From positions 131,190 to 195,189 of the forward strand of contig JAYQSL010000007.1 in the NCBI GenBank assembly GCA_038146865.1: DNA of 64,000 bases, given 5' to 3'. Under the pieces are notes generated by a model, which saw only the letters and a list, made by a program, of their open reading frames with translations, ran no database searches and was not told the DNA's origin. The translations under genes were made by a program, and so were the position numbers. This DNA is from Rhodospirillaceae bacterium (GTDB lineage Bacteria > Pseudomonadota > Alphaproteobacteria > MPNO01 > UBA2964). Shown here piece after piece: positions 5,203 through 51,535 of the stretch; position 1 is the first letter of the stretch; each line of letters begins with the position of its first letter.

Positions 5203-6291
5203 TCACTCGGAGTCTAAAGGTTCAATATTGTCCTCGTAATGATGTGTCGCTCCTTTATGGTCTTCGACTATCCAACCCATTCCATCAACGCTTGGAGTAA
5301 TCCAGGTGTCTTCAGCTGAAACTTTCCCGAAACCTCCGGGTATGTCCAACACATATAGAGGTTGTGCAATCCCAGAGAGACGACCCCGAATAGATCGAAC
5401 TAAATTCCGACCGTGCCTCAGTGTGGTCCGAAAATGAGAAGTTCCTTGGGCTAAGTCGCCCTGATGCAAGTAATAGGGCTTTATACGATTTTCAACTAAG
5501 GTACGCATCAGTTTTGTAAGGTCTGTTGAGTTATCATTGATACCTTTTAAAAGAACAGTTTGACTCAGCATTGGGATACCAGAGTCAATTAATTTTCGGA
5601 TCGCTTCCTCTGCTGATTGATCTATCTCTGACGCGTGATTGCAGTGTAGTACAATCCAAAGCGGCTTCTGAATATTGAGCGCTTTTAACATAGCGCTCGT
5701 GATCCTATCAGGATCAAGGGCTGGGACCCGAGTATGAATTCTAATCGTCCCAACATGGTCGATTTTCTCAAGTCTGTTCAGGATATCATTGATTCTTTGA
5801 GGTGCTAATATCAGCGGATCTCCTCCCGATAATATCACCTCCCAGATCTCATTGTTTTGTTTTATGTAGTCGAGGGCTTTGTCGAGTTGGGCCTCGCTTA
5901 AACGGGCCCCTCCAACTGAATTTCTCCGGAAACAAAATCGGCAGTATACCGGACAGGACGATACCGGCATGAGTAAAACGCGGTCTGGATAGCGGTGAAC
6001 GAGACCAAACACTGGAGAATGGTGATCATCGCCGATTGGATCAGACAATTCTTTTTCGGACTTTTCATTTTCATCTGTTGTCGGCACGAATTGGCGAACC
6101 AGAGGATCAGACTTGCTTCTCCCTTTAAGCCGTTCCAGAAGTTTTTTCGGGATCCCGATGGGAAGGGTTCTTGCGGCGTCTTCGCAAGCCTCGGTATCTG
6201 AAAGACATACCAAGTTGGCGTCCACAAGTGCTGAGAGGATTTGCGAATGTTTTTTGCGCTTTCTTCCGGTAAGTTTTTGGATGATATTCAT
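5203..6291 (-). CDS. epmB: EF-P beta-lysylation protein EpmB (lysine 2,3-aminomutase family, radical SAM)
   Basis: Radical-SAM CPVYCRFCFRR motif and KamA-family length of 362 aa. It sits next to efp and diverges from epmA. Confidence 0.85.
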   Translation of the reverse strand: MNIIQKLTGRKRKKHSQILSALVDANLVCLSDTEACEDAARTLPIGIPKKLLERLKGRSKSDPLVRQFVPTTDENEKSEKELSDPIGDDHHSPVFGLVHRYPDRVLLMPVSSCPVYCRFCFRRNSVGGARLSEAQLDKALDYIKQNNEIWEVILSGGDPLILAPQRINDILNRLEKIDHVGTIRIHTRVPALDPDRITSAMLKALNIQKPLWIVLHCNHASEIDQSAEEAIRKLIDSGIPMLSQTVLLKGINDNSTDLTKLMRTLVENRIKPYYLHQGDLAQGTSHFRTTLRHGRNLVRSIRGRLSGIAQPLYVLDIPGGFGKVSAEDTWITPSVDGMGWIVEDHKGATHHYEDNIEPLDSE

Positions 6292-6322
6292 CCGATCAGA
6301 GCCTCATAAATTATAAAATGAC

Positions 6323-7396
6323 ATGAAAACTGACCCAGCTCAAAAACTACTCCCGAAGTGGTGGGATCCAGATCGTATCGCTCTTTTGTTACCAAAGCTT
6401 AGGGCCCGAAATCAAATCTTATCCGTAATAAAAGATTGGTTTAGAAGCGAAGAATTCATAGAGGTAGAAACTCCTGTATTACAGGATTCACCAGGCTTGG
6501 AGCCTCATTTGATAGCTTTTCAAACAACGCTCCTGGAGCCTTTCTCTGCGTCTGGCTCAACAAAGTATCTTCAGAGCTCCCCCGAATACGCGATGAAAAA
6601 GCTTTTGGTTGCCGGTATGACGAAGATTTTTCAAGTAGCCCGATGCTACCGAAACGCAGAACGTTCGATGATTCATCACCCAGAATTTACGATGCTAGAG
6701 TGGTATCGCTCTGGCGCAACTTGGAGGCAGACAGCGAATGACACCGAGGCTTTGATCAAAGCTGCAGCATCTTTGACAGGAAGAAAGGAGGTAAATTTTA
6801 AAAACAACTTATGTGATCTTCGAAAACCGTTTGATTACCTCTCAGTTACTGAAGCATTTTTGAAATTTGCGAAAATAGATCTTCGATTATCTCTAATAGA
6901 TCCCAATTTTCCTGATAGGTCCAAATTGGCGAAGATGGCTAAAGACTCTGGGATTAGGATTGAAAATGAGGATAGTTGGGAGGTAATCTTTGACAGAATC
7001 TTGATTGAGAAAGTTGAACCAAAACTGGGTTTGGGTCGTGGAACTGTTCTTCATGACTATCCATTGCCACTTGCTGCATTAGCTCGAGGATCTTCTGATG
7101 ATCCTCGTGTGGCTGAGCGTTTCGAGGTCTACATCTGCGGTGTTGAGCTGGCCAATGGTTTTGGTGAGCTTTCTGATCCCGTTGAGCAAAGGCAAAGATT
7201 TGAGAGCGATCTTAAGAAAAAAAAGGCATTAGGTATGGCGGTTTATCCAATCGACGAGGACTTTTTAGCCGCGCTCGAAGTGGGTATGCCTAGTTCTTCT
7301 GGTGTAGCTCTCGGTTTGGATCGTTTGGTGATGTTGTTGGTAGGCGCGAAGTGTATCCAAGATGTAATCTGGGCACCTATCATAACAGACTCATGA
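6323..7396 (+). CDS. epmA: EF-P lysine-34 lysyltransferase EpmA (GenX/PoxA, class II LysRS paralog)
   Basis: Class II aaRS catalytic core without an anticodon-binding domain (FQVARCYRNAE...MLEWY...GLDRLVMLL). It lies in the efp neighbourhood. Confidence 0.85.
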   Translation: MKTDPAQKLLPKWWDPDRIALLLPKLRARNQILSVIKDWFRSEEFIEVETPVLQDSPGLEPHLIAFQTTLLEPFSASGSTKYLQSSPEYAMKKLLVAGMTKIFQVARCYRNAERSMIHHPEFTMLEWYRSGATWRQTANDTEALIKAAASLTGRKEVNFKNNLCDLRKPFDYLSVTEAFLKFAKIDLRLSLIDPNFPDRSKLAKMAKDSGIRIENEDSWEVIFDRILIEKVEPKLGLGRGTVLHDYPLPLAALARGSSDDPRVAERFEVYICGVELANGFGELSDPVEQRQRFESDLKKKKALGMAVYPIDEDFLAALEVGMPSSSGVALGLDRLVMLLVGAKCIQDVIWAPIITDS

Positions 7397-7487: not shown

Positions 7488-8177
7488 TTAGCCGTTCTCA
7501 AAATTTAGGAGCACCTTGTTAAATTCTTTAATAGCTTGTGCTGGTCCTCCTTCAAAATTCCAAACGCTTCCTGATACTGCTATAAAATCAGCTCCGGCTT
7601 CGATCAATGGCTGGCAATTATCCGGAGTTATTCCTCCTATTGCCACGCAGGGAACGTTTGTGATTTGAGACCAGACTTCTAAAATGTTTGGCTCGGCAGT
7701 ATGCACCCTTTCTTTGGTTGAGCTCACGTAAAATGCACCAAAGGCCACATAATCAGCTCCTGCTTCACTCGCTTCCATCGCAAGGTGCTTGGAGTTATGA
7801 CAAGTGACACCCACAATAAAGTCATCACCCACTAAGTTCCTCGCTTCGGGATAAGGTGTGTCGTTTTGGCCGATATGCACGCCGTCGCAACCTAACCGGG
7901 CCGCTAACGACGGATTGTCATTAAGGACAAAAGCAATATCTCGATTTTTTGTGACCTCCATCAGTTTGTCAGCTACCCTGCTAACGTTCTCATCCGAATC
8001 TTTAAGCCTAAGTTGGACACATGCAACATTTCCCTCATCCAACGCAGCGGCCAAAAGCTCAGAAAAAGAGGCTTCTATCGTCCTTTCAAAACTTGGCGGG
8101 GTGATCAAGTAAATTTGGCAAGGTGTCCTATTTGCCATTCTTTTTGTTAAACCTTGTTTTCGGAAGCCGGGGAACAC
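7488..8177 (-). CDS. thiE: Thiamine-phosphate synthase
   Basis: TMP-TENI family motifs (IYLITPP, DGVHIGQND, ADYVAFGAFYVSSTK, CVAIGGIT). The true start may be the internal Met at 8138. Confidence 0.85.
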   Translation of the reverse strand: MFPGFRKQGLTKRMANRTPCQIYLITPPSFERTIEASFSELLAAALDEGNVACVQLRLKDSDENVSRVADKLMEVTKNRDIAFVLNDNPSLAARLGCDGVHIGQNDTPYPEARNLVGDDFIVGVTCHNSKHLAMEASEAGADYVAFGAFYVSSTKERVHTAEPNILEVWSQITNVPCVAIGGITPDNCQPLIEAGADFIAVSGSVWNFEGGPAQAIKEFNKVLLNFENG

Positions 8178-8217
8178 AAAGCCATTGTCTAATTCAAAGA
8201 TAATTTTATTGTCTCTA

Positions 8218-9138
8218 TTAAAATTTTCCTTGATATATTTTTATAATATTGTTGAGCATCTCGAGTGCGTCCTCCCGCGGACGCTGAAAAGTGTTTCTAC
8301 CTATAATAGAGCCATTCCCTCCACCATCGCGTATCGCCCGTGCTTCGTTGTATATTCCGTCAAGGTCTTTCGCCTCGCCGCCTGAAAAAACAACAATTCT
8401 GCGTCCAGCAAAGCAACTCTGAACCACATGACTAATACGGGAGGTTAGATCGTGTGTAGGAATGTTCTGGGATACATATACTTTGGCAGCTGCGTCGAGG
8501 AACATCGCGTCGGTTGGGGGCTTCACTTTAATTATGTGAGCACCAATTAAAGCGGCCATATGGGCTGCGTATGCGCAGACATCCATTGCCGTCTCACCTT
8601 CTCTGGTCACCATGCCTCCTCGAGGATAGGACCAAACAACAACGGCGAGGCCACATGATTTCGCTTCCTCTGCCAATTCTCTGATTTCTTCAATTAGTTC
8701 GTATTGATCCTCTGATCCAGGATAAATAGTGAACCCGATGGCTGCGCATCCAAGCTTAAGAGCATCTCCTACACTCGCCGTAACAGCTTGGTCCTTATTA
8801 GATGAAAGGGAGTTTGCACTGTTGCATTTAAGAATTGTTGGCACTGCACCTGCGAACGTATCCGCTCCAGCCTCCAACATGCCTAAGGGGGCTGCGAATG
8901 CAGAAAGCCCGGCATCTACTGCTAATTGATAGTGGTAATGCGGATCATAACCTGCTGGATTAGGGGCAAAGCTTCGCGCAGGTCCATGCTCAAAACCTTG
9001 ATCAACTGGCAGGATCACAAGTTTACCAGTTCCCCCCAAACGTCCATGCATCAGAATTCGAGCAAGATTACTTTTCGTTCCTGGATTATCAGATTCATAA
9101 CCGGAGAGAATTTTTTTAACTCTTTGTGATATTTTCAC
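8218..9138 (-). CDS. fbaB: Class I fructose-bisphosphate aldolase (FbaB/DhnA type)
   Basis: Collinear similarity to E. coli FbaB (GTGKLVILPVDQGFEHGP...YDPHYHYQLAVDAG...IGFTIYPGSE...AHIIKVKPP); 306 aa. Confidence 0.8.
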   Translation of the reverse strand: MKISQRVKKILSGYESDNPGTKSNLARILMHGRLGGTGKLVILPVDQGFEHGPARSFAPNPAGYDPHYHYQLAVDAGLSAFAAPLGMLEAGADTFAGAVPTILKCNSANSLSSNKDQAVTASVGDALKLGCAAIGFTIYPGSEDQYELIEEIRELAEEAKSCGLAVVVWSYPRGGMVTREGETAMDVCAYAAHMAALIGAHIIKVKPPTDAMFLDAAAKVYVSQNIPTHDLTSRISHVVQSCFAGRRIVVFSGGEAKDLDGIYNEARAIRDGGGNGSIIGRNTFQRPREDALEMLNNIIKIYQGKF

Positions 9139-9237
9139 GATGAACCCCTAAATTATAGACCTACACACCTTGTGTGATTATTTTAGATGAAACCTGAGAA
9201 TCAGAAACCATCTGACATAAGCCACAAGAAATAAAAT

Positions 9238-10401: not shown

Positions 10402-10578
10402 TTGGGGATAGCGGTGCTGTGCGGTTCGCGAGGCATATTAATCTCCGGGGCCTATCAACACCTAAAGGGAGCTGTCCCTGTCGGAACCCTGGTTCAGTTA
10501 CACGGCACCCACCTGCTATTGCGGGCCTAGGTGGATTACAGTTCAAACGGCCGTGCGGCTCCGCTATCTCGCAAAAAA
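10402..10578 (+). ncRNA. ssrS: 6S RNA (SsrS), boundaries approximate
   Basis: About 170 nt between the zapA stop and the 5-FCL gene, the conserved ssrS locus. The 5' GGGGAUAGCGG pairs with the 3' CCGCUAUCUC as a closing stem. The 3' end, ggcuccgcuaucuc, resembles the E. coli 6S 3' end. Central asymmetric GC-rich segments are present. Confidence 0.6.
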
Positions 10579-14150: not shown

Positions 14151-15193
14151 CTGAGGGGCGTCTTATCAGTCTTGACACTACAGAGGGCGACGCAGCAGAT
14201 GTTGCGCTGCGTCCAGGGGCATTGGGGGAGTTTGTCGGCCAAGATAAACTCAAGCAAAACCTCAGTGTTTTCGTTGAAGCGGCAAGAAATAGAGGTGAAG
14301 CTTTAGATCACGTTCTTTTCCACGGGCCACCGGGGTTGGGGAAAACAACCCTCGCCCAGATAGTTGCACGGGAACTTGGAGTCGGTTTTCGTGGCACCTC
14401 TGGGCCAGTGATAGCAAAGGCTGGCGATCTTGCGGCAATTCTCACCAATCTTGAACCAAGAGATGTTCTATTCATCGACGAAATTCATAGGTTATCGCCT
14501 GCGGTGGAAGAGATCTTGTATCCTGCAATTGAAGATTTCCAACTTGATTTAATTATCGGGGATGGGCCTGCTGCACGCTCAGTCAAGATCGATCTTCCGC
14601 CATTCACTCTAGTTGGTGCAACAACGCGATCTGGTTTGCTGACAACACCTTTGAGGGAACGTTTCGGTATCCCCTTGAGACTTGAATTTTACCAACCTGG
14701 CGATCTGGAAACCATAGTGCGGCGGGCAGCAGGGTTGATGAAAATGAATATTACCCCCGACGGCGCAATGGAAATAGCCCGAAGGGCCCGTGGAACGCCG
14801 CGGGTAGCTGGCCGATTGCTTAGAAGGGTAAGAGACTTTGCCTCTGTAGAGAACGCAGAAAATATAGATGCAAAGACTGCGGATCTTGCGCTTAATCGGC
14901 TTGAGGTAGACCAGCTTGGTCTAGACGCCATGGATCGTCGTTATTTGACTTGTTTGGCAGAGAACTATGGGGGAGGCCCCGTGGGGGTGGAGACACTTGC
15001 CGCAGCGCTATCAGAACAGCGAGATGCCATCGAAGAGGTAATAGAACCATATCTCATTCAAAGAGGGCTTCTTCAACGTACACCTAAGGGGCGCGTTCTC
15101 ACTAAGACTGGCCTGAATTATGTCGGTGCTGCGTTGCCTGAGAGTGGACCGTTATTCGAACCCCTTTCAAGTGCTGAAAAATTCGATGACTGA
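14147..15193 (+). CDS. ruvB: Holliday junction branch migration helicase RuvB
   Basis: Walker [12 protein letters not shown] and conserved RuvB blocks; 348 aa. Confidence 0.95.
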
Positions 15194-15608
15194 TCCGAAA
15201 GATCAATTTTCTCATAATATTTCTGTGCGAGTTTATTTCGAAGACACCGACGCAGGTGGAGTCGTCTATCATACAAGCTTTCTTCGTTTTGCAGAGAGGG
15301 CTCGAACAGAGTTGCTTCGTTCTTTTGGTATTTCTCACCAAAGTTTAAAGGAAAAAGAGGGAATTATCATTGCTGTTCGGAGTTGCAATGCGGAGTATAT
15401 AAAGCCCGCAAAACTGGATGACATGCTTGAGATAACCTCTGAAAGTATAATACCTGAGGCGACTGGACTTAGGTTAAGCCAAACGATCAGACGTGGAAAA
15501 GAAATTTTGGTTTCGATAGGTGTGAGGCTCGTTTGTGTCAATGAGAGAGGTAAGCCAGTAAGGTTGCCTTTGCGGATACGAGAAAAATTCGAGATATTTC
15601 AGAGTTAA
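15186..15608 (+). CDS. ybgC: Tol-Pal-associated acyl-CoA thioesterase YbgC
   Basis: 4HBT hot-dog fold motif [14 protein letters not shown]. The start MTDPKD at 15186 overlaps the ruvB stop; the ORF tool's start is at 15120. Confidence 0.85.
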
Positions 15609-15635
15609 GTTCGAAAAAGAGGGAAAGAGCTGGAA

Positions 15636-16352
15636 ATGGAACAAGCAGAGGTTGCAGCAGCCGCACTAGCTGGATCACTGGGTCAAGATATGTCGGTTTG
15701 GGGTCTGTTCCTGCAAGCTGATGTCGTGGTCAAAGTCGTCATGATTGTCTTGCTTTTGGCGTCGCTTTGGAGTTGGGCGATAATATTTGAAAAATGGTTT
15801 CGTCTTCGGACTATGTGGGCTCGGGCAGATGCCTTTGAAGAGGCTTTTTGGTCAGGTGGATCACTTGAGGATTTGTTCTACCGAGCCGAGAAGGGGCGTC
15901 CCCATCCTATGTCTTCTATTTTTACCTCTGCAATGCGAGAGTGGCGCAGGTCGGGCACCCGGAATGTTGGCGATGTAGCTGGATTGGCGCAGAGGATAGA
16001 GCGCGTAATGTATGTAACGCTCGGTAGGGAAATGGATAAAGCTGAGAGACATATGACCTTCTTAGCATCGGTGGGATCCACGGCGCCTTTTATAGGATTA
16101 TTTGGCACGGTTTGGGGAATTATGAATAGTTTTCAGGCCATCGCTATGTCAAAAGATACGTCGCTTGCAGTAGTGGCCCCTGGTATTGCTGAGGCTTTAT
16201 TTGCGACAGCTCTTGGCTTGGTCGCAGCCATACCGGCGGTACTTGCATATAATAAATTAAGCTCCGATTTTGGCCGTTACGTAACAAGGTTGGAAGCTTT
16301 TTCCAGTGAGTTCGGAGCGATAATCTCTCGGCAATTGGAGGGTGAAAGTTAG
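15636..16352 (+). CDS. tolQ: Tol-Pal system protein TolQ
   Basis: MotA_ExbB family with three TMs (GLFGTVWGIMNSFQAI, VVAPGIAEALFATALGLVAAIPAV). Confidence 0.9.
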   Translation: MEQAEVAAAALAGSLGQDMSVWGLFLQADVVVKVVMIVLLLASLWSWAIIFEKWFRLRTMWARADAFEEAFWSGGSLEDLFYRAEKGRPHPMSSIFTSAMREWRRSGTRNVGDVAGLAQRIERVMYVTLGREMDKAERHMTFLASVGSTAPFIGLFGTVWGIMNSFQAIAMSKDTSLAVVAPGIAEALFATALGLVAAIPAVLAYNKLSSDFGRYVTRLEAFSSEFGAIISRQLEGES

Positions 16353-35527: not shown

Positions 35528-37636
35528 TTAACTTAGAGCTGTTTTTTTTCTTTTACCTGCGGCATTTAATCGGGCTGCTAGGCGTTTTGGCCCGATGGGT
35601 CTTTTAGGCGCTATGCCTAGGTCTACAGTTTCAAGCCTTTTGATTTCGTCCCTTAGTTGTGCAGCTTCTTCAAATTCCAGATTTGATGCTGCTTCTCTCA
35701 TTCGATCATTAAGGCTTTCAATATGTTTTGCTAGATTTTGTCCTACAAGATGTTTCGAGTCTGTATCCGCAAGGTCAACTGTAAAATGATCGTGTTCGTA
35801 AACAGACTCTAAAATATCCCCGATCTTTTTTTTGACTGTTTGCGGGGTGATGCCGTTAGTACGGTTGAAATCTTCTTGTTTTTCGCGACGCCTATTTGTC
35901 TCTTCTATGGCATATTTGAGGGACTTGGTCATAACGTCAGCGTATAAAATAACTTCACCGTCTATATTCCGGGCTGCTCGACCGATTGTTTGAATAAGAG
36001 AAGTTGCGGATCTAAGGAAGCCCTCTTTATCCGCATCCAGAATCGCCACTAGTCCGCATTCTGGAATATCCAAACCCTCTCTCAGTAGGTTAATGCCTAT
36101 AAGGATATCAAAAGCTCCCAAGCGTAAATCTCTTATGATTTCAATCCGCTCTAAGGTATCGATATCTGAATGAAGGTAGCGCACGCGGAGCCCCGCCTCC
36201 TGCATGTATTCGGTCAGATCTTCTGCCATACGTTTTGTTAGTGTTGTAACTAGGACCCGCTGGGCTTTTTTAACTCTTTCTCTGCATTCATAAAGTAAAT
36301 CATCAACTTGGGTCTCAACAGGTTTGATTATGCATTTTGGGTCTATCAGCCCAGTCGGGCGAATAACTTGCTCAACAAATATCCCGCCGGTTTGCTCCAG
36401 TTCCCAGGGCCCGGGTGTCGCTGATACAAAAATCGATTGTGGTCTCATTCCATCCCACTCTTCAAACTTTAGCGGTCGGTTGTCTATGCAAGAGGGTAAA
36501 CGGAAACCAAATTCTGAGAGTGTGGTTTTCCTATTGTAATCGCCTCGATACATTCCCCCCAACTGTGGCACTGTTACATGGCTTTCATCTACAATAAGAA
36601 GTGCGTCATCGGGGAGATATTCAAATAACGTCGGAGGCGGCAAGCCCGGGGCTCTGCCCGTCAAGTAGCGTGAATAATTCTCAATACCAGCGCAATGGCC
36701 CGCCGTTTCCATCATTTCCAGGTCAAATACGGTGCGCTGTTCTAACCGCTGCGCCTCCAACAGCTTGTTCTGCGCCCGAAGCTCCGCCAATCGTTTCTTT
36801 AGATCTATTTTTATGCTTTTTATGGCTTGCTGTAATGTTGGTCGTGGGGTGACGTAGTGGCTGTTAGGATAGATACGCACTTGGTCAAGCGCCATTGTTT
36901 TTTCACCGGTTAGGGGATCAAATTCGCTTATAGACTCCAATTCATCCCCAAAAAAAGAGAACCTCCAGGATCTATCCTCATAATGGACAGGGAATAATTC
37001 CACCAAGTCGCCTCGGACCCTGAAAGATCCGCGGTGAAAATTTTGATCGTTTCGACGATATTGAAGTTCGACGAGTCTATTGAGTAGCTGATTTCTATCC
37101 GCTATTTGCCCGACCTGCAGGAGGATAGTCATCTCCGAATAGGTTTCAACGGAGCCGATCCCATAGATACATGAGACAGACGCAACAATAATAACATCTC
37201 TCCGTTCGAGTAATGCTCGAGTCGCCGAATGACGCATTCGATCAATTTGTTCATTTATGGATGCATCTTTCTCGATATAGGTGTCGGTGCGCGGCACGTA
37301 TGCTTCCGGTTGGTAATAATCGTAATAGGAAACGAAGTACTCAACAGAATTTTTAGGAAAAAACTCCTTCATTTCCCCGTATAGTTGGGCCGCAAGAGTT
37401 TTATTAGGTGCCAATATAAGTGCCGGTCGCCCTAGCCTTTCTATTGCGTTTGCCATTGTGAAGGTTTTTCCTGATCCAGTCACACCCAGTAAAACTTGTT
37501 CTCGGTCACCCTCCTTCACACGGTCTACAATTTGTTTGATTGCATCGGGTTGGTCCCCTGCCGGTTTATAGTCAGACGATAGAGAAAATTTCACACGCCC
37601 GGCAGGGACAGGCTTTTTGTCTAAAAATTGTTTCAT
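35528..37636 (-). CDS. uvrB: Excinuclease ABC subunit B
   Basis: Helicase motifs ([12 protein letters not shown]), a beta-hairpin region, and a C-terminal UVR domain. I place the start at MKQFLD; the ORF is open to 37672. Confidence 0.95.
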
Positions 37637-37732
37637 TTCAAAATAAAATATTATAGCCCCCGCGAGGGTCAATATGACCAGAGTATTTGTTCAAACGGAG
37701 GTTTTTTCGTGCAGGTCTCTAGTTTCCTTGTT

Positions 37733-39214
37733 TTATGAGAATAACAGGGACTTTATAACGATAGGGACTGCGGCAGATTGCAATAAAGGACTGCCAATAT
37801 CGATATAATCGAATTCTGCCAAATCAATGCTGTCGATTGATACTATCGGCTCTTTGAATAGGAGTTCCTCTCTGGCATGCCTTCCAAATATTCGTCCGAT
37901 GTCTCCTGTGGATATTAAAATGAGTGCTCTTCCTCCAGAAAGGACGGGGTTCATGCCTATTATGACGCCTTTCAAAAAAGAATTTATCCTCTCAAACGTT
38001 GCCGAACCTTCCCATTCGAAGCAAATTGCTACAGCTTGTTGGCTTGTTTCTAAACCAAAAAAAGCCAATCTCTCACGTACCATTTTAGCGACTAAATTCT
38101 CTTCAATCGGTCCTGTGCCCAACGAAAGCGCGGGTCTAATCACCGGAATGTTTCGAAGAGGCAAGCTTTCCATCGGGCTGATGAAAACCGTCGTGCCGGA
38201 TAGTTGGGAAGAGTATTGTGATGCGCCGATGACTGTGGCGCGAATACTCTCTACAGGCTCCTTGATCGTGAAATTGGTTTTGGCCAGTTTATCCCTCAAA
38301 GACGCTGCGATGATAGCCCCCATATCGGTTTGGTGGTCAGAACCATATCCATAAAAATACTCTGCGACACCCCCGGAAAAAGTAATTGCATCTATCGGAC
38401 TCCGCCAATCAAGTGGGGGAATTCGATGTAGATTTTTGATTTCATCTTCCAGTTTTTGCTGCGAAATAACCGCGAAAAGCACCTCGGTCATCTGTGAAGC
38501 AATTTTTTCTATTTTATTCTTCGATGCTTTGCTTCCGATGGAGAGATTTGCCCCAACCTTTTCGGCGAAATATTCGCCTGTCTTATCAAGTCTTCTGATT
38601 TCCCAATTTTGGTCCCAAGAAATTAGTCGGGCTCCAATTTCTAAAGCTGTAACGCCCATAATCTTACCGTTTCGGCAAATGGATATTTTTGTGGTGCCTC
38701 CCCCAATGTCGATATTCATTATGGTGGCGCCCGTTAATTGCGAATTAGTAACTGCCCCTGATCCGAATGCGGATAACGCGGCCTCCAATCGATCACCTGC
38801 GGACACCGAAACAAAATTGCCCGTCTCTAGTGAGAAAAGATCTCCAATAGCGCGAGCGTTTTTTTGCATCAACGCAACGCCGGTCATTATAACCGCTCCC
38901 GTATCTATATCTGCGGGAGAGACCCCCGCCCATCGGAATTGTTCATGTATGAATTTTCTCAGGGAATTAACGTCGATTAACTGATTTCCCGAGTAGGGTG
39001 TAAGAATGATTTCCGACTCAAAAAATACACCTCTATCCGCGACGACATATTTGCCTGCTTCTTGCTCTAGCCGTATATCCGAGATTATTAAGTGGGTGGT
39101 CGTTGAGCCGATATCGATGCCGATGCTTCTAAGATTAGTTTTTTGTTCTACTGATAGGTTGCGTGTCGGATTTGCAAAAAAAATCCGTCCAGTTAATTCA
39201 GCTTGATCACTCAT
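37733..39214 (-). CDS. EutA-family ASKHA ATPase (homolog of the ethanolamine ammonia-lyase reactivating factor)
   Basis: GIDIGSTTTHLIIS and NIDIGGGTTKISI are actin-fold phosphate loops. Blocks are collinear with E. coli EutA (AIIITGESAKTRNA / SAGPHLESVIAGHGAGA / NIDIGGGTSN). 493 aa. Confidence 0.7.
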   Translation of the reverse strand: MSDQAELTGRIFFANPTRNLSVEQKTNLRSIGIDIGSTTTHLIISDIRLEQEAGKYVVADRGVFFESEIILTPYSGNQLIDVNSLRKFIHEQFRWAGVSPADIDTGAVIMTGVALMQKNARAIGDLFSLETGNFVSVSAGDRLEAALSAFGSGAVTNSQLTGATIMNIDIGGGTTKISICRNGKIMGVTALEIGARLISWDQNWEIRRLDKTGEYFAEKVGANLSIGSKASKNKIEKIASQMTEVLFAVISQQKLEDEIKNLHRIPPLDWRSPIDAITFSGGVAEYFYGYGSDHQTDMGAIIAASLRDKLAKTNFTIKEPVESIRATVIGASQYSSQLSGTTVFISPMESLPLRNIPVIRPALSLGTGPIEENLVAKMVRERLAFFGLETSQQAVAICFEWEGSATFERINSFLKGVIIGMNPVLSGGRALILISTGDIGRIFGRHAREELLFKEPIVSIDSIDLAEFDYIDIGSPLLQSAAVPIVIKSLLFS

Positions 39215-40447
39215 TTATCCGCCGCTTGAAAAATTCCAAGTGGTTCCCTCCCTGAAATAATGATCCTCCATAAAGCTGTTTGATTTATTTTTCGCACATT
39301 CACTCTCAAAGGTTAAACGGACCGCAGGGTCTTCCATCCAATAGGGTATGGAGGTTCCTCCTGGCTTGTCGACTTCCAAAACCCCTTCATCCGCAATCAT
39401 TTCTCCTGGAACTCCGGCTTTTTGCGCCCGGTGATTGTTAGGGCCATACCAAGCCAGCAACCTCAATGGATCACGGCCCGAATTAAAATGTTGGTGGAAC
39501 CAGCGCAACCTTGGCATAGGGCATGCGGAGATCATGCTAGCAAATCCATACTCTATTCTTAGCACTTCGTCTTGAGATCCGGTTTTCCAAGGTGTTGGTC
39601 CGATGTCCTCTGGCCAAGAATTACAATAGCCTACGCCACCAATGGAGATAAATACTGCGGCCTCGCCGGGGTAATAGGCTCTAGAATAGTGCCCAGCCGG
39701 GTATTCACCGATATACTGGTAAAATATGTTTTCAGCCATTTTTGGCTCTAGCCGGCGATAACCCGGCGTTCGGCGATTATCGAGATAAAGTTCGGTTGCA
39801 AACACATCGGGAATAATGTTTGTCCGACGCATTGCTAATCCTCGTGCCTCATCCTCCTCTAAACCATCTTTTGTTTCAAAATTATTTCCTTGGGTATTGA
39901 AACGTTTCGGAAAACTAACATCGCTTTTAAAGATTACATGTTGATCATTTAAAAGGTTGAATATGTTTGGTGCCGAGGTCCCAGCAAGTAATAACGCGGG
40001 GTTTGATGACGAATTAACAATTCTATGAAAACTATTCAGTGGAATAGAGAAAAGACTGCCTCTTTCCCATTCGAAGATTTCAGGAGGATCCCCATCAGTG
40101 GCCCAGATTTCTGTGGTACCTCTACCCTCGAGAACTAAAAAAATTTCCTCATATAAGTGCCTCTCTGCGTTCAAGGCGCCAGCTCCTGGCACTTCGACCA
40201 AATATGAGCCCCAGAGACCCTCAGTGCCAAATAGCTGGATGAAAGCTCCGCGGCCTCCCATATCAGGCCAGTTTCCGAGAGCAACATTTTGTAAATCTGG
40301 AATTGCAATGTCGCGAATAATTGGTACGTCTTGTGCAGCCATGAATCTGTCGTACGGGGTGGCCCGTCGGTTCCAAGCAGCGGTCCCGGCATACGTGTTG
40401 CCATTTGGCTCATGCCAATGCGGTTCGCCCGTTATATCATGCGGCAT
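39215..40447 (-). CDS. Bicupin-domain protein (gentisate-dioxygenase-like fold, function unknown)
   Basis: 410 aa with two cupin beta-barrel segments (YEEIFLVLEGRGTTEIW...GSLFSIPLNSFHRIVN, and a second barrel around AVFISIGGVGY). Its stop abuts the EutA-like start, so the two are probably co-transcribed. Confidence 0.6.
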   Translation of the reverse strand: MPHDITGEPHWHEPNGNTYAGTAAWNRRATPYDRFMAAQDVPIIRDIAIPDLQNVALGNWPDMGGRGAFIQLFGTEGLWGSYLVEVPGAGALNAERHLYEEIFLVLEGRGTTEIWATDGDPPEIFEWERGSLFSIPLNSFHRIVNSSSNPALLLAGTSAPNIFNLLNDQHVIFKSDVSFPKRFNTQGNNFETKDGLEEDEARGLAMRRTNIIPDVFATELYLDNRRTPGYRRLEPKMAENIFYQYIGEYPAGHYSRAYYPGEAAVFISIGGVGYCNSWPEDIGPTPWKTGSQDEVLRIEYGFASMISACPMPRLRWFHQHFNSGRDPLRLLAWYGPNNHRAQKAGVPGEMIADEGVLEVDKPGGTSIPYWMEDPAVRLTFESECAKNKSNSFMEDHYFREGTTWNFSSGG

Positions 40448-40619
40448 TTTCTACCCTTTTTTCGAAAAAAATGATCAAAGCTGACCAATGCGTCAAGTTT
40501 ATTCCTCCGAACATCAATTAGTTTTGCATTAGCGAATATTACCGGAAAGCATTTGCGATAGGTCTTGCCAAAGGTCTATCCTGGGTCGGATAATATGATC
40601 AAAATGGGGAGTAGGAAAT

Positions 40620-41519
40620 ATGGCCACTCAGCTCAGGATTCCTGATGACATTGATACGGTTCCTCTGCACGATGCGATCGGTGCCGAGGTCCGGGGGATT
40701 GATCTCACAAAACCTTTGGAAGAGCCAACTCAGCAAATGCTCAGGGAGTTGATTGGTGAATATTCTATTTTGTTGATCAGGGGTCAGGATATTTCCGAGG
40801 AGCAGCAATTTGCTTATGCCCGCAGTTTTGGACCAATCGCGGAGCGGATGAAACCCGCTAGCGCAAAGCAAGCAGCGGAACAAGAGTCGAAGCGGTCAAA
40901 ACACTTTGATCCAAATAATAAAATGCAAATGATCAGCAACAAGAGGGACGAAGACGGTAAGCTGATCGGTGCCCTAGGTGATGGGGAAATGTGGTTTCAT
41001 ACCGATAAATGCTATCTGCAGAAGCCCTATCATGTCTCTTTTCTTTACCCCACGGCATTGCCGACAACAGGGGGGCACACAATGTTTGCAAGTTTGTATA
41101 GGGCCTATGACCTCATCCCAAAGAAATTAAAAGAAACCCTTCAAGGACGAAAAGTTCTTCAAGTTTATGATTATGGCAAAGAAGGTAAGCCTGATTTGGC
41201 CACTAAATCTTTGGATGATGTGCTTCATTACTGGCAACCCTTATTTTTGAAAAATCCTTTTTCGGGAAAAACAGCGGTCTATGTAAGCCGTCTAATGTCA
41301 GCAAAAATAGAGGGTATGGATGATGATGAAAGTCGCCGAGTGCTCGACGATATTTGTGATATCATAGAAGATAAATCAAACTTTTATGAGCACACTTGGA
41401 AGATTGGGGACATTATCGGGTGGGATAACTACTCGACTTTGCACGCTAGAACTGATTGGCCGCGTCAGCAGGAACGAACCTTTCGGCGTTGTTTGACGCA
41501 AGGTGATCGGCTCTATTAG
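40620..41519 (+). CDS. TauD/TfdA-family Fe(II)/2-oxoglutarate-dependent dioxygenase
   Basis: GAEVRGIDL...LIRGQD...WHTDKCY...HARTDW; 299 aa. It diverges from the bicupin operon. Confidence 0.8.
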   Translation: MATQLRIPDDIDTVPLHDAIGAEVRGIDLTKPLEEPTQQMLRELIGEYSILLIRGQDISEEQQFAYARSFGPIAERMKPASAKQAAEQESKRSKHFDPNNKMQMISNKRDEDGKLIGALGDGEMWFHTDKCYLQKPYHVSFLYPTALPTTGGHTMFASLYRAYDLIPKKLKETLQGRKVLQVYDYGKEGKPDLATKSLDDVLHYWQPLFLKNPFSGKTAVYVSRLMSAKIEGMDDDESRRVLDDICDIIEDKSNFYEHTWKIGDIIGWDNYSTLHARTDWPRQQERTFRRCLTQGDRLY

Positions 41520-41629: not shown

Positions 41630-42244
41630 TTATCTGTTAGTCGGCAACTTCGGATCAGGTTTGACGTTAAGAATTACGTTTAGGTCGCCCGGCTCGCCTC
41701 CGCCAAAACCCTCAACTCCAAATCCATTGATTTTGACCTTTTGTCCGTGGACGGACCCACTTGGTATATCAACCGCAACGGTTAATCCCGTCATAGTTGT
41801 TACCAGCTTACATACACCACTTTTGGCTTCTGAAGCCAATAAGTCCAATCTGACGGCAATATCTTGACCCTTCATAACCATAGACGTGGCCGCAGCGCCT
41901 TTTACACGTCCTAAGCGCGTACCAGCAATATCTCCAAACAAATCTATAAGTCGTTCTCCTGTGCTTTCGTCAATTTCAAAATCAAACCATGCTCCACCTT
42001 TTTCCCAGCCCTCTGGGTGTGGTTGAGACGGATCAGATTTAAATTGTTTAAAGTCGTATTCTTTTCTAGTTTTACTATTTGCGAGCACATTATAGGCAGC
42101 TGTTATCTTTTTGAACATTTCGGTCGCGGCCTCATCGCCTGCGTTTAGATCTGGATGAAGTTTTTTTGCTAGCTCTCGATAAGCTTTTTTTATTGCGTCA
42201 TGCTCAGCAGTAGGCTCTATGCCCAACAATTCATATGCATTCAT
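41630..42244 (-). CDS. J-domain co-chaperone (CbpA/DnaJ-like, lacking the zinc-finger region)
   Basis: An N-terminal J domain, YELLGIEPTAEHDAIKKAYRELAKKLHPDLN, followed by a DnaJ_C-like beta domain. Confidence 0.8.
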   Translation of the reverse strand: MNAYELLGIEPTAEHDAIKKAYRELAKKLHPDLNAGDEAATEMFKKITAAYNVLANSKTRKEYDFKQFKSDPSQPHPEGWEKGGAWFDFEIDESTGERLIDLFGDIAGTRLGRVKGAAATSMVMKGQDIAVRLDLLASEAKSGVCKLVTTMTGLTVAVDIPSGSVHGQKVKINGFGVEGFGGGEPGDLNVILNVKPDPKLPTNR

Positions 42245-45181: not shown

Positions 45182-45778
45182 CTAGGGTATGTCCCTGCAT
45201 GCCATCAAAACCGAATAAGCATGGTTGATTGATTTCAATTTTTCCTCTGATCTTTTATCGCCGCCGTTGGAGTCCGGGTGGTTTTCTTTTACCAGTTTTT
45301 TATATTGAGATTTAATTTCTTGCACAGTCACGGGCGGAGAAATTGTCAAAATTTTAATTGCTTCCTCCTCCGGGGATCGTGGTCTTGGACGCCACCCTGT
45401 TTTTTCAGGCTGATTCTCTAATTTTACCTCGGTATCCCAATTGCCAATCCCAAAAGGTCCCAGAGTGAATTCCGACGCCCCGTTCTTACGTTTCCCAGTG
45501 AATGGCCAGGTGGGTCGCTGCCAGGTAATATCAAGACGGATGTGACGTTCTATCTCCTCTTCACTCATTCCCTCATAATAATTCCAGGACCGATTATATT
45601 CCCGAACGTGTTCGAGGCAGAACCAAAAGTATTCCTCCAGCCGGTCCGGCGATTGGGGCGCCCTAAACTCCCCAACCTCATTGCATTTGGCGAAATCACA
45701 AATTTTTAACCCATCTTTTCTTTGATTGGAGTCCGATGTATCGGTGAACAGTTCTGAAGGAGATCTTTTTTGCTTCAT
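45182..45778 (-). CDS. J-domain protein with N-terminal Cys-rich region and C-terminal J domain
   Basis: C-terminal QEIKSQYKKLVKENHPDSNGGD...HAYSVL (the HPD motif). N-terminal Cys cluster CDFAKC...FCLEH. Confidence 0.7.
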   Translation of the reverse strand: MKQKRSPSELFTDTSDSNQRKDGLKICDFAKCNEVGEFRAPQSPDRLEEYFWFCLEHVREYNRSWNYYEGMSEEEIERHIRLDITWQRPTWPFTGKRKNGASEFTLGPFGIGNWDTEVKLENQPEKTGWRPRPRSPEEEAIKILTISPPVTVQEIKSQYKKLVKENHPDSNGGDKRSEEKLKSINHAYSVLMACRDIP

Positions 45779-45821: not shown

Positions 45822-46388
45822 TTAGTCGCCAGTATAAAGATCAGGCCACCGAGATTTCACAATCGGTCCGGCGCTGGATAACGCATGACAGGTATTAATT
45901 TGATAAGGAGACTTATCTTTGCGGTCCTCTTTGAGAGTACTATCCTGCCCAGCTTCACGTTTGACTGTTTTAAAACCTATTGTGCCGACTGGACGAAGTA
46001 AATCAACTACATGAACGCACCCATTTACCCCTCCAACAATTTCTTTAAGCTTTCTATTCCAACCCCGCTCAATTTTCTCGCCTTTTAGTTTTTTGAAAGA
46101 AGGGATCACGCCTGGGCAAACCTCGTAAGGATGTGCATCCATGTCTAACTGAATATCAATTATTTCAACTTTGGAATTAAGCGTTATCCTTATTTTCATA
46201 TCATGAATGGGCGTTCCGGCTGGGATGATACCGCGGTAACCATTTGGAATGTCGTAAGCAGCAAGATCAATCAGGTGACCTTCTATGTCCCAATTATTGT
46301 CCTCCCGACGAAATGCCGAAACGGTTATCTCTCGGGTCTGGATTGGATTGCGTTTGACTGGGGTTGGTAGCGGCATGATGTTTCTCAC
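45822..46388 (-). CDS. Conserved hypothetical protein (188 aa)
   Basis: An ORF with consistent coding signal. I see no recognisable catalytic motif. Confidence 0.5.
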   Translation of the reverse strand: MRNIMPLPTPVKRNPIQTREITVSAFRREDNNWDIEGHLIDLAAYDIPNGYRGIIPAGTPIHDMKIRITLNSKVEIIDIQLDMDAHPYEVCPGVIPSFKKLKGEKIERGWNRKLKEIVGGVNGCVHVVDLLRPVGTIGFKTVKREAGQDSTLKEDRKDKSPYQINTCHALSSAGPIVKSRWPDLYTGD

Positions 46389-49735: not shown

Positions 49736-51535
49736 TTGAAAGGCTCTTGTCCAATGACCGTTTTCCTGACTGACCTCAAGTCGGTCTCTTTCTCGGCCAT
49801 ATGCTGCGCTGTAGGTTTAGTGCTAGCAGTCGGCCACGCGGCTTCACAGGAGCTGATCAAGGGAACCTCTGATCGGGTTGTCCCTGATGCCGAGCCCATC
49901 AGATTGGTTCCTTCGGTCGATAGTCCGGTGAAAACAGAAAAAAATTCCAATAAACCAAAAACGAAGACCGAAGCTGCCGTTAAGCTGAAAAAGCTAGATT
50001 TGGTTGATCCAGACTCCACCGGCATTCTGGATGCTGATGATGGAGGTTTCAAACCTGGCATGTGGGCGGGTTCAAGCAGGCCGTTAATTACCAATCTTCT
50101 TGGTTTGTTGCCTATAAAAATGACTTCGTCCAGCCAAAGGCAGCTGTTTAGGCGTCTTCTGCTTACAAGGGCTGACCCCCCTGTTGGTGAACAAATAAAT
50201 AAATCCTTATTGTCACTTCGGATCGCAGCCCTTTTCGATGCTGGTGATTATACGTCCGCGAACAAACTGATCGACGCGGTGGGTCATTCAAATGAGCAAT
50301 ACTCGAAAATAAAAACCGAGATACTTTTCCGTCGGCACGATCCGAAAAAGGCTTGTGGCATTGTTCAAGGCAAGGGGGAAGATTATAACGCGATCTACTG
50401 GAAAAAAGCAGAAGCCTATTGCCTCGCGATGGACGGTCAGAATGAAAAGGCATTGCTAATATCAGAAATTCTATCAGAACAGAGCGGTTCGGTAGAGCCA
50501 GCATTTTTAGTTGGTATCGAAGCGTTAACCGGCAGCAAGACTAGCGTGTTGACAAGAATTGAGTCATTCAATGGGTTATTAATATCTCTTTTGCAGTCTG
50601 GAAAAGTCGCTTTACCGGATACTTTGCCCCTAAGCTCTAAAATTGGAGACTTAGCTGCCCTCGCTTTTTCGGAGGCTCGGCCTCCAACGAGGCGAATCCT
50701 TGATGGAGAAATTGCAATGTTGGGCGGGGCCATTACCCCCTATCAACTTGTTGGGCTTTATAAAATCAAGAAAGCAAAAAATACAGATTTGTTGCGAGTT
50801 GCTGAGGATAAGAAAATAACATGGAATGCGGAAAATCGCTCTTTCGTATTGCAGGCGGCGCTCGCGGAGGCACTGCCAGCAAAAAGGGCTAGGATTGTAG
50901 AACGGGCACTTTTATTAGCTCGCTTGCATAAAACCTTTGCTCTTACCGCGCTGGTGATGATGCCGGTCATGGATGAAATTGAACCATCCGCTGAATTATC
51001 GTGGTTTGCCCCTTGGGCTGTCCGTGCCTACGCTATCGGTGGCAACATGATAGCGGTTAGAAAGTGGCGTGATCTGATATCCAAGTCATCAGATACCTCG
51101 GTTTTGCCCTTAACTGTGTTGTCCGGTAGTTCAGCAAATGAAATTATTTCGGAAAAGACACTCCATCAGTGGTATTTGTCGCGAGAGAAGGCTGATCAGG
51201 AGGAGTTTGGAAACCAGGCGAGACTCTTTTATTCATTATTGCAAGCTCTCGACATCCCAGTGGCGGGGTCTTTATGGTCCGATGTCATAAATAGGGAAAA
51301 TATAGACGAGCCGCTGCCAATGATAAGCGGTGTTTTGTCGCTTTTGTCAGATGCGGCCTCGAGAGGCAGGGTGGGAGAGACTGTCGCTTTGGCAATCATT
51401 TTATTAGGCGAGGCCGGGACAGAGCGTTCTAATCATTACGCCGTGGTTCAGGTGGTGAAGGCATTACACATGGTGGGTCAAGGCGAAATTGCTAGACAGT
51501 TGGCTCTTGAAGCAGCCGTCGCCGCTGGTCTGTAA
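49736..51535 (+). CDS. Large secreted or periplasmic alpha-helical hypothetical protein (599 aa)
   Basis: The N-terminus has a hydrophobic signal-like segment (SFSAICCAVGLVLAVGHAASQ). The protein is all-helical and has no recognisable catalytic motif. It lies directly upstream of xerD. Confidence 0.6.
   Translation: MKGSCPMTVFLTDLKSVSFSAICCAVGLVLAVGHAASQELIKGTSDRVVPDAEPIRLVPSVDSPVKTEKNSNKPKTKTEAAVKLKKLDLVDPDSTGILDADDGGFKPGMWAGSSRPLITNLLGLLPIKMTSSSQRQLFRRLLLTRADPPVGEQINKSLLSLRIAALFDAGDYTSANKLIDAVGHSNEQYSKIKTEILFRRHDPKKACGIVQGKGEDYNAIYWKKAEAYCLAMDGQNEKALLISEILSEQSGSVEPAFLVGIEALTGSKTSVLTRIESFNGLLISLLQSGKVALPDTLPLSSKIGDLAALAFSEARPPTRRILDGEIAMLGGAITPYQLVGLYKIKKAKNTDLLRVAEDKKITWNAENRSFVLQAALAEALPAKRARIVERALLLARLHKTFALTALVMMPVMDEIEPSAELSWFAPWAVRAYAIGGNMIAVRKWRDLISKSSDTSVLPLTVLSGSSANEIISEKTLHQWYLSREKADQEEFGNQARLFYSLLQALDIPVAGSLWSDVINRENIDEPLPMISGVLSLLSDAASRGRVGETVALAIILLGEAGTERSNHYAVVQVVKALHMVGQGEIARQLALEAAVAAGL

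Follow-up and report, generated by a model that had tools for sequence, protein, structure and literature searches.

On a 64,000-nucleotide stretch of a Rhodospirillaceae bacterium genome (assembly GCA_038146865.1, contig JAYQSL010000007.1, positions 131,190 to 195,189; the whole stretch is hereafter called the window), a bicupin gene is followed directly by the gene of an ATPase related to EutA, the reactivase of ethanolamine ammonia-lyase. We show that this ATPase is a member of a large sister subfamily of EutA, and that the bicupin, not a B12 enzyme, is its constant genomic partner. With moderate confidence, and by analogy with known reactivases, we propose that the ATPase would serve as an ATP-driven (re)activase or metal-loading factor of the bicupin, acting through exchange of the bicupin's metal. 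The pair is laid out as follows:

39215–40447, minus strand: bicupin gene, 410 aa, first of the pair (open reading frame (ORF), Cupin_2 match and AlphaFold2 (AF2) model)
37733–39214, minus strand: EutA-family ATPase gene, 493 aa, second of the pair (ORF and PF06277 match)
39212–39217, minus strand: TAA-ATG junction of bicupin stop and EutA-like start, read from the sequence; translational coupling

The junction reads ...GGA TAA ATG AGT..., with a spacer of zero, and the same stop-start abutment is present in L001, the closest genome. A preliminary description of the window had reported this abutment as well as a TauD-family gene that diverges from the pair across a 172-nt spacer: both are present in the sequence, and its ORF positions and family assignments (EutA, bicupin, TauD) all hold in the light of Pfam scores and the AF2 model. 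Since they are long, give strong profile matches and have hundreds of homologues, the three ORFs are real genes and not chance ORFs.

The ATPase matches PF06277 of Pfam with 389.5 bits over residues 27–492 (E = 3e-116; gathering cut-off 27), and aligns with E. coli EutA (b2451) end to end, residues 27–492 against 5–465, at 30% identity. For Hydantoinase_A (PF01968) the score is 16 bits, less than the model's cut-off (22.9), and no part of the match is significant; set against the EutA match, this leads us to reject a hydantoinase reading of the protein, in line with the preliminary description, which had preferred EutA. The protein nevertheless stays below the cut-offs of all NCBIfam EutA equivalogs (344 bits against 598 at best; the others 248 against 952, 219 against 769 and 186 against 799). 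Of the residues that never vary in the cupin-linked subfamily, E. coli EutA has 87 unchanged, among them those of every ATP-binding motif and of the C-terminal acidic motif; 53 others, including C180, H41 and H446, are specific to the subfamily.

The AF2 model of the ATPase (predicted local distance difference test, pLDDT, 79.8) consists of an ASKHA core and a C-terminal α/β domain. In Foldseek comparisons with the PDB the core alone aligns, to Ppx/GppA, HgdC, PilM, MreB and EutJ; the C-terminal domain has no structural match. We found no EutA structure in the PDB, and sequence and profile searches gave no useful relative of the ATPase there. Its features are:

39146–39214, minus strand: N-terminal extension, residues 1–23 (GRIFFANPTRNL), with F13 and R18 conserved in the subfamily
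39098–39115, minus strand: ASKHA phosphate-1 motif D34-I-G-S-T-T39, with D34, G36 and T39 invariant and common to E. coli EutA
38693–38710, minus strand: ASKHA phosphate-2 motif D169-I-G-G-G-T174, invariant
38369–38377, minus strand: ASKHA adenosine motif S280-G-G282, invariant
37736–38197, minus strand: EutA-specific C-terminal α/β domain, residues ~340–493 (AF2 model and alignment)

The invariants that the C-terminal domain has in common with E. coli EutA are D438, G440, D461, D469, D472, K488, S489, L490 and F492. Only 5–9 residues, none of them histidine, precede the ASKHA motif in canonical EutA (E. coli, Listeria, Haladaptatus). Genes of this kind are named 'ethanolamine ammonia-lyase reactivating factor EutA' by public annotation pipelines. 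We reject the canonical ammonia-lyase reactivase reading as very unlikely: the equivalog cut-offs are missed, the surveyed ORFs of the window include neither eutB/eutC nor another B12 enzyme, and 170 related loci gave no EutB match.

The preliminary description had called the ATPase an orphan. We collected 80 genome loci through the bicupin and 80 metagenome loci through the EutA-like protein, and scored pairing in the 50 metagenome loci with at least 1.4 kb of sequence upstream of the EutA-like gene. A bicupin lies directly upstream on the same strand in 46 of these 50, with gaps of −30 to +333 nt; shorter metagenome contigs that reach upstream carry a partial bicupin in every case. Looked at from the bicupin, about 60 of the 80 genome loci have an EutA-like gene directly downstream on the same strand, 41–58% identical to that of the window, and most of the loci without a pair are contig ends. 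Because the bicupin is adjacent at these frequencies in both samples, the ATPase is not an orphan. The pair is found in many alphaproteobacterial families, in Betaproteobacteria, in Gemmatimonas and in one 'Deltaproteobacteria' metagenome-assembled genome. In the plasmid collection, the cupin-linked members (three from Sinorhizobium, one from Phyllobacterium) are 44–46% identical to the query, and the canonical EutA of eut operons (E. coli, Klebsiella, Listeria, C. difficile, haloarchaea), encoded beside eutBC, is 29–32% identical. Of the conserved core with an assigned pathway that the preliminary description had considered, the wide conservation is found for the pair and the pathway assignment is not.

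No EutB match occurs in the 170 related loci, 1.93 Mb in total. In the window, a Pfam survey of 38 further ORFs, which took in nearly every ORF of 250 aa or more, found no eutB/C, microcompartment shell gene or B12-binding enzyme, in agreement with the preliminary description; these ORFs are housekeeping only (ruvB, tolB, ftsH, folP, glmM, thiD, moeA, uvrC, folB, aroB, xerD-like, accA, secA, argJ and others). Full-text searches retrieved no literature linking EutA-family proteins with cupins, nickel or His-rich tails.

EutA-like paralogues accompany bicupin paralogues. One of the latter, 'bicupin2' (~375 aa, ~32% identical), is without the N-terminal tail described below and often overlaps the main bicupin from just upstream, by 8 nt in L032 (6851–8005 / 7998–9215) and L074 (6779–8005 / 7998–9215); its N-terminal barrel is degenerate, with QQ for ExH, and its C-terminal barrel carries four histidines. 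The operon of L049 (6060–10938) has the order hupE-bicupin2-bicupin-eutA-like. The overlap suggests a heteromeric α/β bicupin in those taxa. Two other cases hint at a different partner class for part of the EutA family: P0310 (892 aa) is an EutA-family representative fused to an MFS transporter, and at the locus of P0373 (L179, 5678–8443) an MFS_3 transporter gene lies directly upstream of the EutA-like gene, with no cupin nearby. P0385 (606 aa) is EutA-like, starts with 'MHDIDGGHIHEM' and ends in a bicupin2-type cupin barrel (…YKKADRHAADYHV…MFHQHFNT…); possibly a natural fusion or a chimeric assembly, it is a single representative and was given no weight.

Of the two barrels of the bicupin, profile hidden Markov models (HMMs) detect the N-terminal one (Cupin_2 of Pfam, 30.2 bits against a cut-off of 27.2, residues 86–154) and miss the second. 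The AF2 model (pLDDT 86.5, predicted template modelling score 0.87) shows both β-barrels, at residues ~60–157 and ~231–336. Foldseek assigns a probability of 1.00 to MncA, OxdC, vicilins and quercetinase and also matches salicylate 1,2-dioxygenase, all at the level of fold only (template modelling (TM) scores 0.4–0.5, 10–14% identity). Searches of the PDB with the sequence and with a 38-sequence profile retrieved auxin-binding protein 1, on the strength of a motif, and no relative besides; no oxalate decarboxylase or oxidase family HMM of Pfam or NCBIfam matches, and the MabB equivalog of NCBIfam scores 15.7 bits against a cut-off of 650. A set of 5.8 billion proteins holds 1562 homologues, and the family spans at least 573 GTDB species. 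Three features stand out:

40403–40447, minus strand: N-terminal tail, residues 1–15 (MPHDITGEPHWHEPN), from alignment and low pLDDT
40025–40165, minus strand: candidate metal site of the N-terminal barrel, E95, H97, E100 (E101), H141, from alignment
39488–39676, minus strand: candidate site of the C-terminal barrel, Y258, P260...W316, H318, H320, from column counts in 212 and 145 sequences

The tail is predicted to be disordered (pLDDT below 50 for residues 1–15 in AF2), and its residues H3, D/E4, H10, W11, H12, E13 and P14 are invariant or nearly so in the family alignment. The N-terminal barrel has the pattern E95-x-H97-x-x-E100...H141. No sequence departs from it at H97 or E100, at least 90% retain E95, and H141 is almost universal; in an alignment with auxin-binding protein 1 the site falls on the zinc-ligand region H57/H59/E63/H106. 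The C-terminal barrel of most of the family has a four-His site, H258-x-H260...W316-x-H318-x-H320. The preliminary description was right that a strict HxH...E...H motif is absent, but this does not imply a metal-free bicupin, or a non-oxidative one as it had suggested; that inference is not supported, given invariant candidate ligands and a link of the pair to nickel/cobalt (Ni/Co) uptake genes.

The best Foldseek matches of the bicupin are the manganese bicupins OxdC and MncA. Ligands H95/H97/E101/H140 of OxdC stand at positions equivalent to E95/H97/E100-101/H141 of the window protein, with Glu in place of the first His. The likeness is otherwise distant (TM 0.42–0.49, root-mean-square deviation ~10 Å, 11–12% identity), and the genomic contexts of OxdC and MncA are unlike those of the bicupin family studied here.

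Four lines of evidence read from the sequences, namely permease neighbours, a Phyllobacterium locus with HoxN/NixA and NikR genes, His-rich ATPase extensions and a swap of tails between the partners, converge and suggest a role in metal handling. For the first, we re-called the neighbourhood genes with a filter on G+C content at third codon positions (GC3) and clustered them. Sixteen loci contain a Ni/Co permease gene, of HupE/UreJ type in 14 (Pfam 188 bits) and of HoxN/NixA type in 2. It is the immediate neighbour of the pair in 12 loci, either convergent, 63–302 nt from the end of the EutA-like gene, or as first gene of a hupE-bicupin2-bicupin-eutA-like operon (L028, L049, L052). Sixteen permease genes in ~1.44 Mb of flanking DNA far exceed what one or two per genome would lead one to expect, with the limit that several of the loci are related.

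The second line comes from a Phyllobacterium zundukense plasmid (L170, NZ_CP104971.1), where the gene order is ferredoxin, class II aldolase, cupin, 'EutA', HoxN/NixA (opposite strand) and NikR, the hoxN/nikR stretch (14745–16347) directly following the cupin-EutA pair. A NikR-box-like palindrome, GTATGA-N16-TCTTAC, lies in the hoxN-nikR spacer at 15888–15915; no such box was found upstream of the L170 cupin, and the 62 kb of L170 examined contain no urease or hydrogenase genes.

For the third line, a phmmer search with the window ATPase against 1.84 billion cluster representatives gave 2423 matches at E ≤ 1e-3 (709 at E ≤ 1e-30), and we surveyed the 136 full-length proteins among the best 150 of them. 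The extension that precedes the ASKHA motif contains at least three histidines in 58 of these 136 EutA-family representatives and at least six in 26, examples being HEHEHEHGHEHGHGHGHEHGHDHDD, MHDHHHAHEHDHE and MHDDHDHDHDHDHG, with up to 13 in sister subfamilies; the share of histidine is 8.4% in the extensions and 1.9% elsewhere in the protein. M(P)H[DE] opens twenty of the extensions, and MHD-x4-5-HxH, the very motif that the bicupin carries in the window, appears in many.

Finally, the tail appears to change sides. The context was informative for four His-tailed ATPases (P0289, P0277, P0287, P0311), and the bicupin adjacent to each of them is without that tail; in 93 pairs an HWHEP-tailed bicupin goes with an ATPase whose extension is His-free and of the 'GGRIFF' (GGRxxF) type; six apparent discordances among the pairs are regex or truncation artefacts. 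A metal-binding-type tail on either partner is hard to explain unless both proteins act jointly on a metal.

The chemistry served by the pair is best seen in neighbourhoods elsewhere. Rieske oxygenases of VanA or LigXa type, with ferredoxin and reductase, lie near it in 35 loci, and a class II aldolase or decarboxylase in 18. A salicylyl-CoA 5-hydroxylase-like FAD (flavin adenine dinucleotide) enzyme, FAA hydrolase, Amidohydro_2, OCD/mu-crystallin and Ldh_2 reductases recur as well, together with TctABC or ABC uptake systems and IclR or LysR regulators. The sole similarity of the bicupins to named families is a weak one, to 5-aminosalicylate and gentisate 1,2-dioxygenases (16–36 bits against cut-offs of 442–650). 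Judging from these neighbourhoods, the bicupin is most likely a C–C- or ring-cleaving oxygenase whose substrate carries a carboxyl group and is probably aromatic. The bicupin resembles gentisate, salicylate and 5-aminosalicylate 1,2-dioxygenases in fold, in size and in a context of hydroxylases, FAA hydrolase and IclR; they differ in their three-His Fe(II) site, as opposed to the ExH..E..H N-terminal barrel of the window type and the four-His C-terminal barrel of the family. We know of none of these dioxygenases that needs an ATPase partner.

In the mechanism that we favour, the functional unit would be the two-gene operon of the bicupin and the translationally coupled ASKHA ATPase. Acting like EutA, the ATPase would bind its client bicupin and open it using ATP, and the opened bicupin could then swap a missing, wrong or oxidised active-site metal ion. 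The 'cofactor' exchanged would thus be a metal ion, most likely nickel, with cobalt or iron as possible alternatives. The His-rich N-terminal tail may act as a metal hand-over arm, placed on the bicupin here (MPHD-x5-HWHEP) and on the ATPase in sister subfamilies, and a neighbouring hydroxylase or demethylase would supply the substrate of the bicupin. More tentatively, as something possible rather than probable, the cupin-linked EutA-like proteins may represent the first reactivase branch outside B12 enzymes, inserting or replacing the metal (probably nickel) of bicupin oxygenases by means of the MHD...HxH arm.

Each element of this proposal has a known counterpart. With E. coli EutA the ATPase shares fold, length, ASKHA motifs and C-terminal acidic motif, and a gene placed directly beside that of the presumed client; it differs in its partner, a bicupin and not EutBC, in the lack of a B12 context, and in an additional N-terminal extension, conserved and, in sister subfamilies, rich in histidine. 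The mechanistic model is borrowed from DdrAB and GdrAB, which reactivate diol and glycerol dehydratases: these ATPases of Hsp70/actin fold prise their client open so that the damaged cofactor is released. They differ from the ATPase of the pair in domain architecture and in having a B12 client. The tails recall HypA (with its MHE motif), HypB, UreE, CooJ and SlyD, which carry His-rich tails or an N-terminal M-H-[DE], take part in nucleotide-dependent metal delivery and are encoded beside their client and nickel permeases. Such tails are seen at EutA-like/bicupin loci too, along with neighbouring genes for Ni/Co permeases and NikR. The resemblance is one of function, without homology; the NTPases of these nickel metallochaperones are P-loop proteins of G3E or MinD type and not ASKHA proteins.

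Several points weigh against a nickel-loading role. Ni/Co permeases accompany only ~10% of loci, mostly from a Xanthobacteraceae-like lineage, Phyllobacterium and Sinorhizobium, and the 64-kb window contains none. In a further 18 concordant pairs, of a 'type II', neither partner has a markedly His-rich tail, and the co-variation of tails could reflect shared descent instead of contact. His-rich tails also occur in zinc and cobalt chaperones, so nickel is not proven; known nickel insertases are G3E GTPases or MinD-type ATPases, and we know of no ASKHA-fold protein that is a metallochaperone. In the marine clade of the window (~28 sequences), H258 and H260 of the C-terminal barrel are replaced by Y and P, with the loss of two of the four histidines, and by this comparison of sequences the metal chemistry of the clade may differ from that of the rest of the family. 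Moreover, the assignment as an oxygenase comes from context, and the window's own such context is the TauD gene alone.

In type II pairs (L087, L097, L098, L101, L104, L111, L122, L132, L138 and L155) the bicupin tail reads 'MDHxPExKWQEP' and that of the ATPase 'ASFSNANRHM'; W11, E13 and P14 are the only bicupin-tail residues common to types I and II.

As an alternative, the two proteins could form a two-component, ATP-dependent catabolic enzyme, with the ASKHA protein as kinase or substrate activator, comparable to acetate and sugar kinases or to enzymes of the hydantoinase/acetone-carboxylase type, and the bicupin as the isomerase, lyase or decarboxylase of the activated intermediate. The intact ATP-binding motifs and the catabolic neighbourhoods fit this, and tight operon coupling suits two subunits as well as a chaperone and its client. 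We nonetheless consider it unlikely: the homology to EutA runs end to end and includes the EutA-specific C-terminal domain, hydantoinase and kinase models score below their cut-offs, and both the partner-swapping His-rich tails and the Ni/Co permease and NikR neighbours would be left unexplained.

The preliminary description had combined the pair with the divergent TauD gene into one cassette for the catabolism of an organosulfonate, a quaternary amine or a dimethylsulfoniopropionate (DMSP)-type osmolyte, with a non-oxidative cupin. The features that bear on it are:

40620–41519, plus strand: TauD/TfdA-family Fe(II)/2-oxoglutarate dioxygenase gene, 299 aa (ORF and PF02668 match), outside the conserved module
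40448–40619, no strand: divergent intergenic region, 172 nt, the presumed promoter region for both the pair and TauD
35528–37672, minus strand: uvrB, one flank of the three genes
41630–42244, minus strand: gene of a DnaJ-domain protein, the other flank

The TauD protein scores 176.4 bits against PF02668 of Pfam and has the facial triad H127-T-D129...H275. It stays below all NCBIfam equivalog cut-offs, with 101 bits against 313 for taurine dioxygenase, and its best PDB relatives are 2,4-dichlorophenoxyacetate and phenoxypropionate dioxygenases (~98 bits). The window and identical environmental contigs do have the three genes side by side; in L001, 2.7 kb separate the TauD gene from the pair, with a histidine kinase gene and a split Rieske/VanA gene in between. 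Beyond the window's own population and this closest genome, however, the supposed trio dissolves: no TauD gene stands beside the pair in L002–L004 or about 160 other loci. In L002 the bicupin is directly abutted by an aminotransferase gene whose counterpart in the window is on the far side of TauD and dnaJ, so that these two have the appearance of an insertion. Around the pair, genes for sulfonate, betaine or DMSP do not recur in the loci examined, whose informative contexts point to aromatic or carboxylate catabolism, and the bicupin keeps its invariant candidate metal ligands. We therefore regard the cassette as improbable; the TauD gene is a lineage-specific neighbour outside the conserved module, which may or may not feed the bicupin enzyme.

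The placement between uvrB and a dnaJ-like gene is as the preliminary description gave it. In the 172-nt region a promoter scan found one sigma-70-like match, on the plus strand at 40565–40594 and pointing to the TauD gene, and none on the minus strand; the number of promoter and terminator matches in 40448–40619 does not exceed the expectation from shuffled sequences. Rfam gave no element in this region and no riboswitch close to the pair, either here or at the eight related loci searched. In L001, the Rieske/VanA_C oxygenase beside the GAF histidine kinase is split into two ORFs of 253 and 142 aa (5366–6621, minus strand); this points to a frameshift, decay into a pseudogene or faulty assembly.

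It is decidedly improbable, in our view, that the bicupin is a non-enzymatic cytoplasmic metal-binding or buffering protein, comparable to MncA and CucA, which the ATPase loads and unloads in Ni/Co homeostasis. MncA is among its best structural matches, and the Ni/Co permease and NikR neighbours as well as the His-rich tails would fit; on the other hand, catabolic operons that include oxygenases, decarboxylases, transporters and IclR/LysR regulators dominate the neighbourhoods, and the several bicupin paralogues per locus suggest diversification of substrates.

All known clients of the EutA family use adenosylcobalamin, and the HupE and NiCoT permease families also transport cobalt. One could thus imagine the bicupin as a new cobalt- or corrinoid-dependent enzyme, whose damaged cobalamin-type cofactor the EutA-like protein exchanges in its ancestral role. 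This appears highly improbable: no cupin is known to bind corrinoids, the loci examined contain no B12-binding domain, cobalamin riboswitch or cob gene, and the NikR of L170 points to nickel. Barely credible, finally, is a genuine B12-enzyme reactivase with a client encoded elsewhere in the genome and a bicupin adjacent by coincidence, as the pipeline annotation as EutA reactivating factor would have it, given an adjacency kept across phyla in 46 of 50 and about 60 of 80 loci, the absence of EutB from 1.93 Mb of related loci and the scores below every NCBIfam equivalog cut-off.

What is new here is a reactivase family with a putative non-B12 client class, and there is a substantial chance of a new system for metallocentre assembly or repair. 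Thousands of genes are now labelled as the ethanolamine ammonia-lyase reactivase EutA, though no examined locus encodes that lyase nearby. If an EutA branch does serve bicupins, this annotation would be corrected and the concept of a reactivase extended beyond B12 enzymes; there would also be a candidate for a new mechanism of metal delivery or repair, and one for a new family of metal-dependent, possibly nickel-dependent, catabolic enzymes. On the more tentative reading given above, the metallocentre assembly and repair system would be of a type not recognised before, and its clients would be a new Ni-dependent family of catabolic enzymes common among Proteobacteria of soil and sea. Cultured carriers of the pair are Sinorhizobium mexicanum, S. 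terangae, S. chiapasense and Phyllobacterium zundukense.

Some minor observations concern the rest of the window. The uvrB gene lies 3' of the EutA-like gene on the same strand, across a gap of ~60–100 nt with no predicted terminator, and this synteny is kept in L002 and L003; its ORF is listed from a TTG, and an in-frame ATG (MKQFLDKK) 13 codons downstream looks the likelier start. Two small J-domain proteins are encoded within 4 kb, one of 204 aa with DnaJ and DnaJ_C domains and one of 198 aa with a C-terminal J domain, the latter adjoining a DUF2889 protein (J-domain and DUF2889 ORFs 41630–42244, 45182–45778 and 45822–46388, all on the minus strand). The ORFs 49736–51535 (plus strand, 599 aa) and 1515–2660 (minus strand, 381 aa) have no Pfam match, and the latter sits between two OmpA-domain proteins. 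The window's only Rfam match is a 6S/SsrS RNA (RF00013) at 10411–10565 on the plus strand, with 70.6 bits against a gathering cut-off of 46.4.

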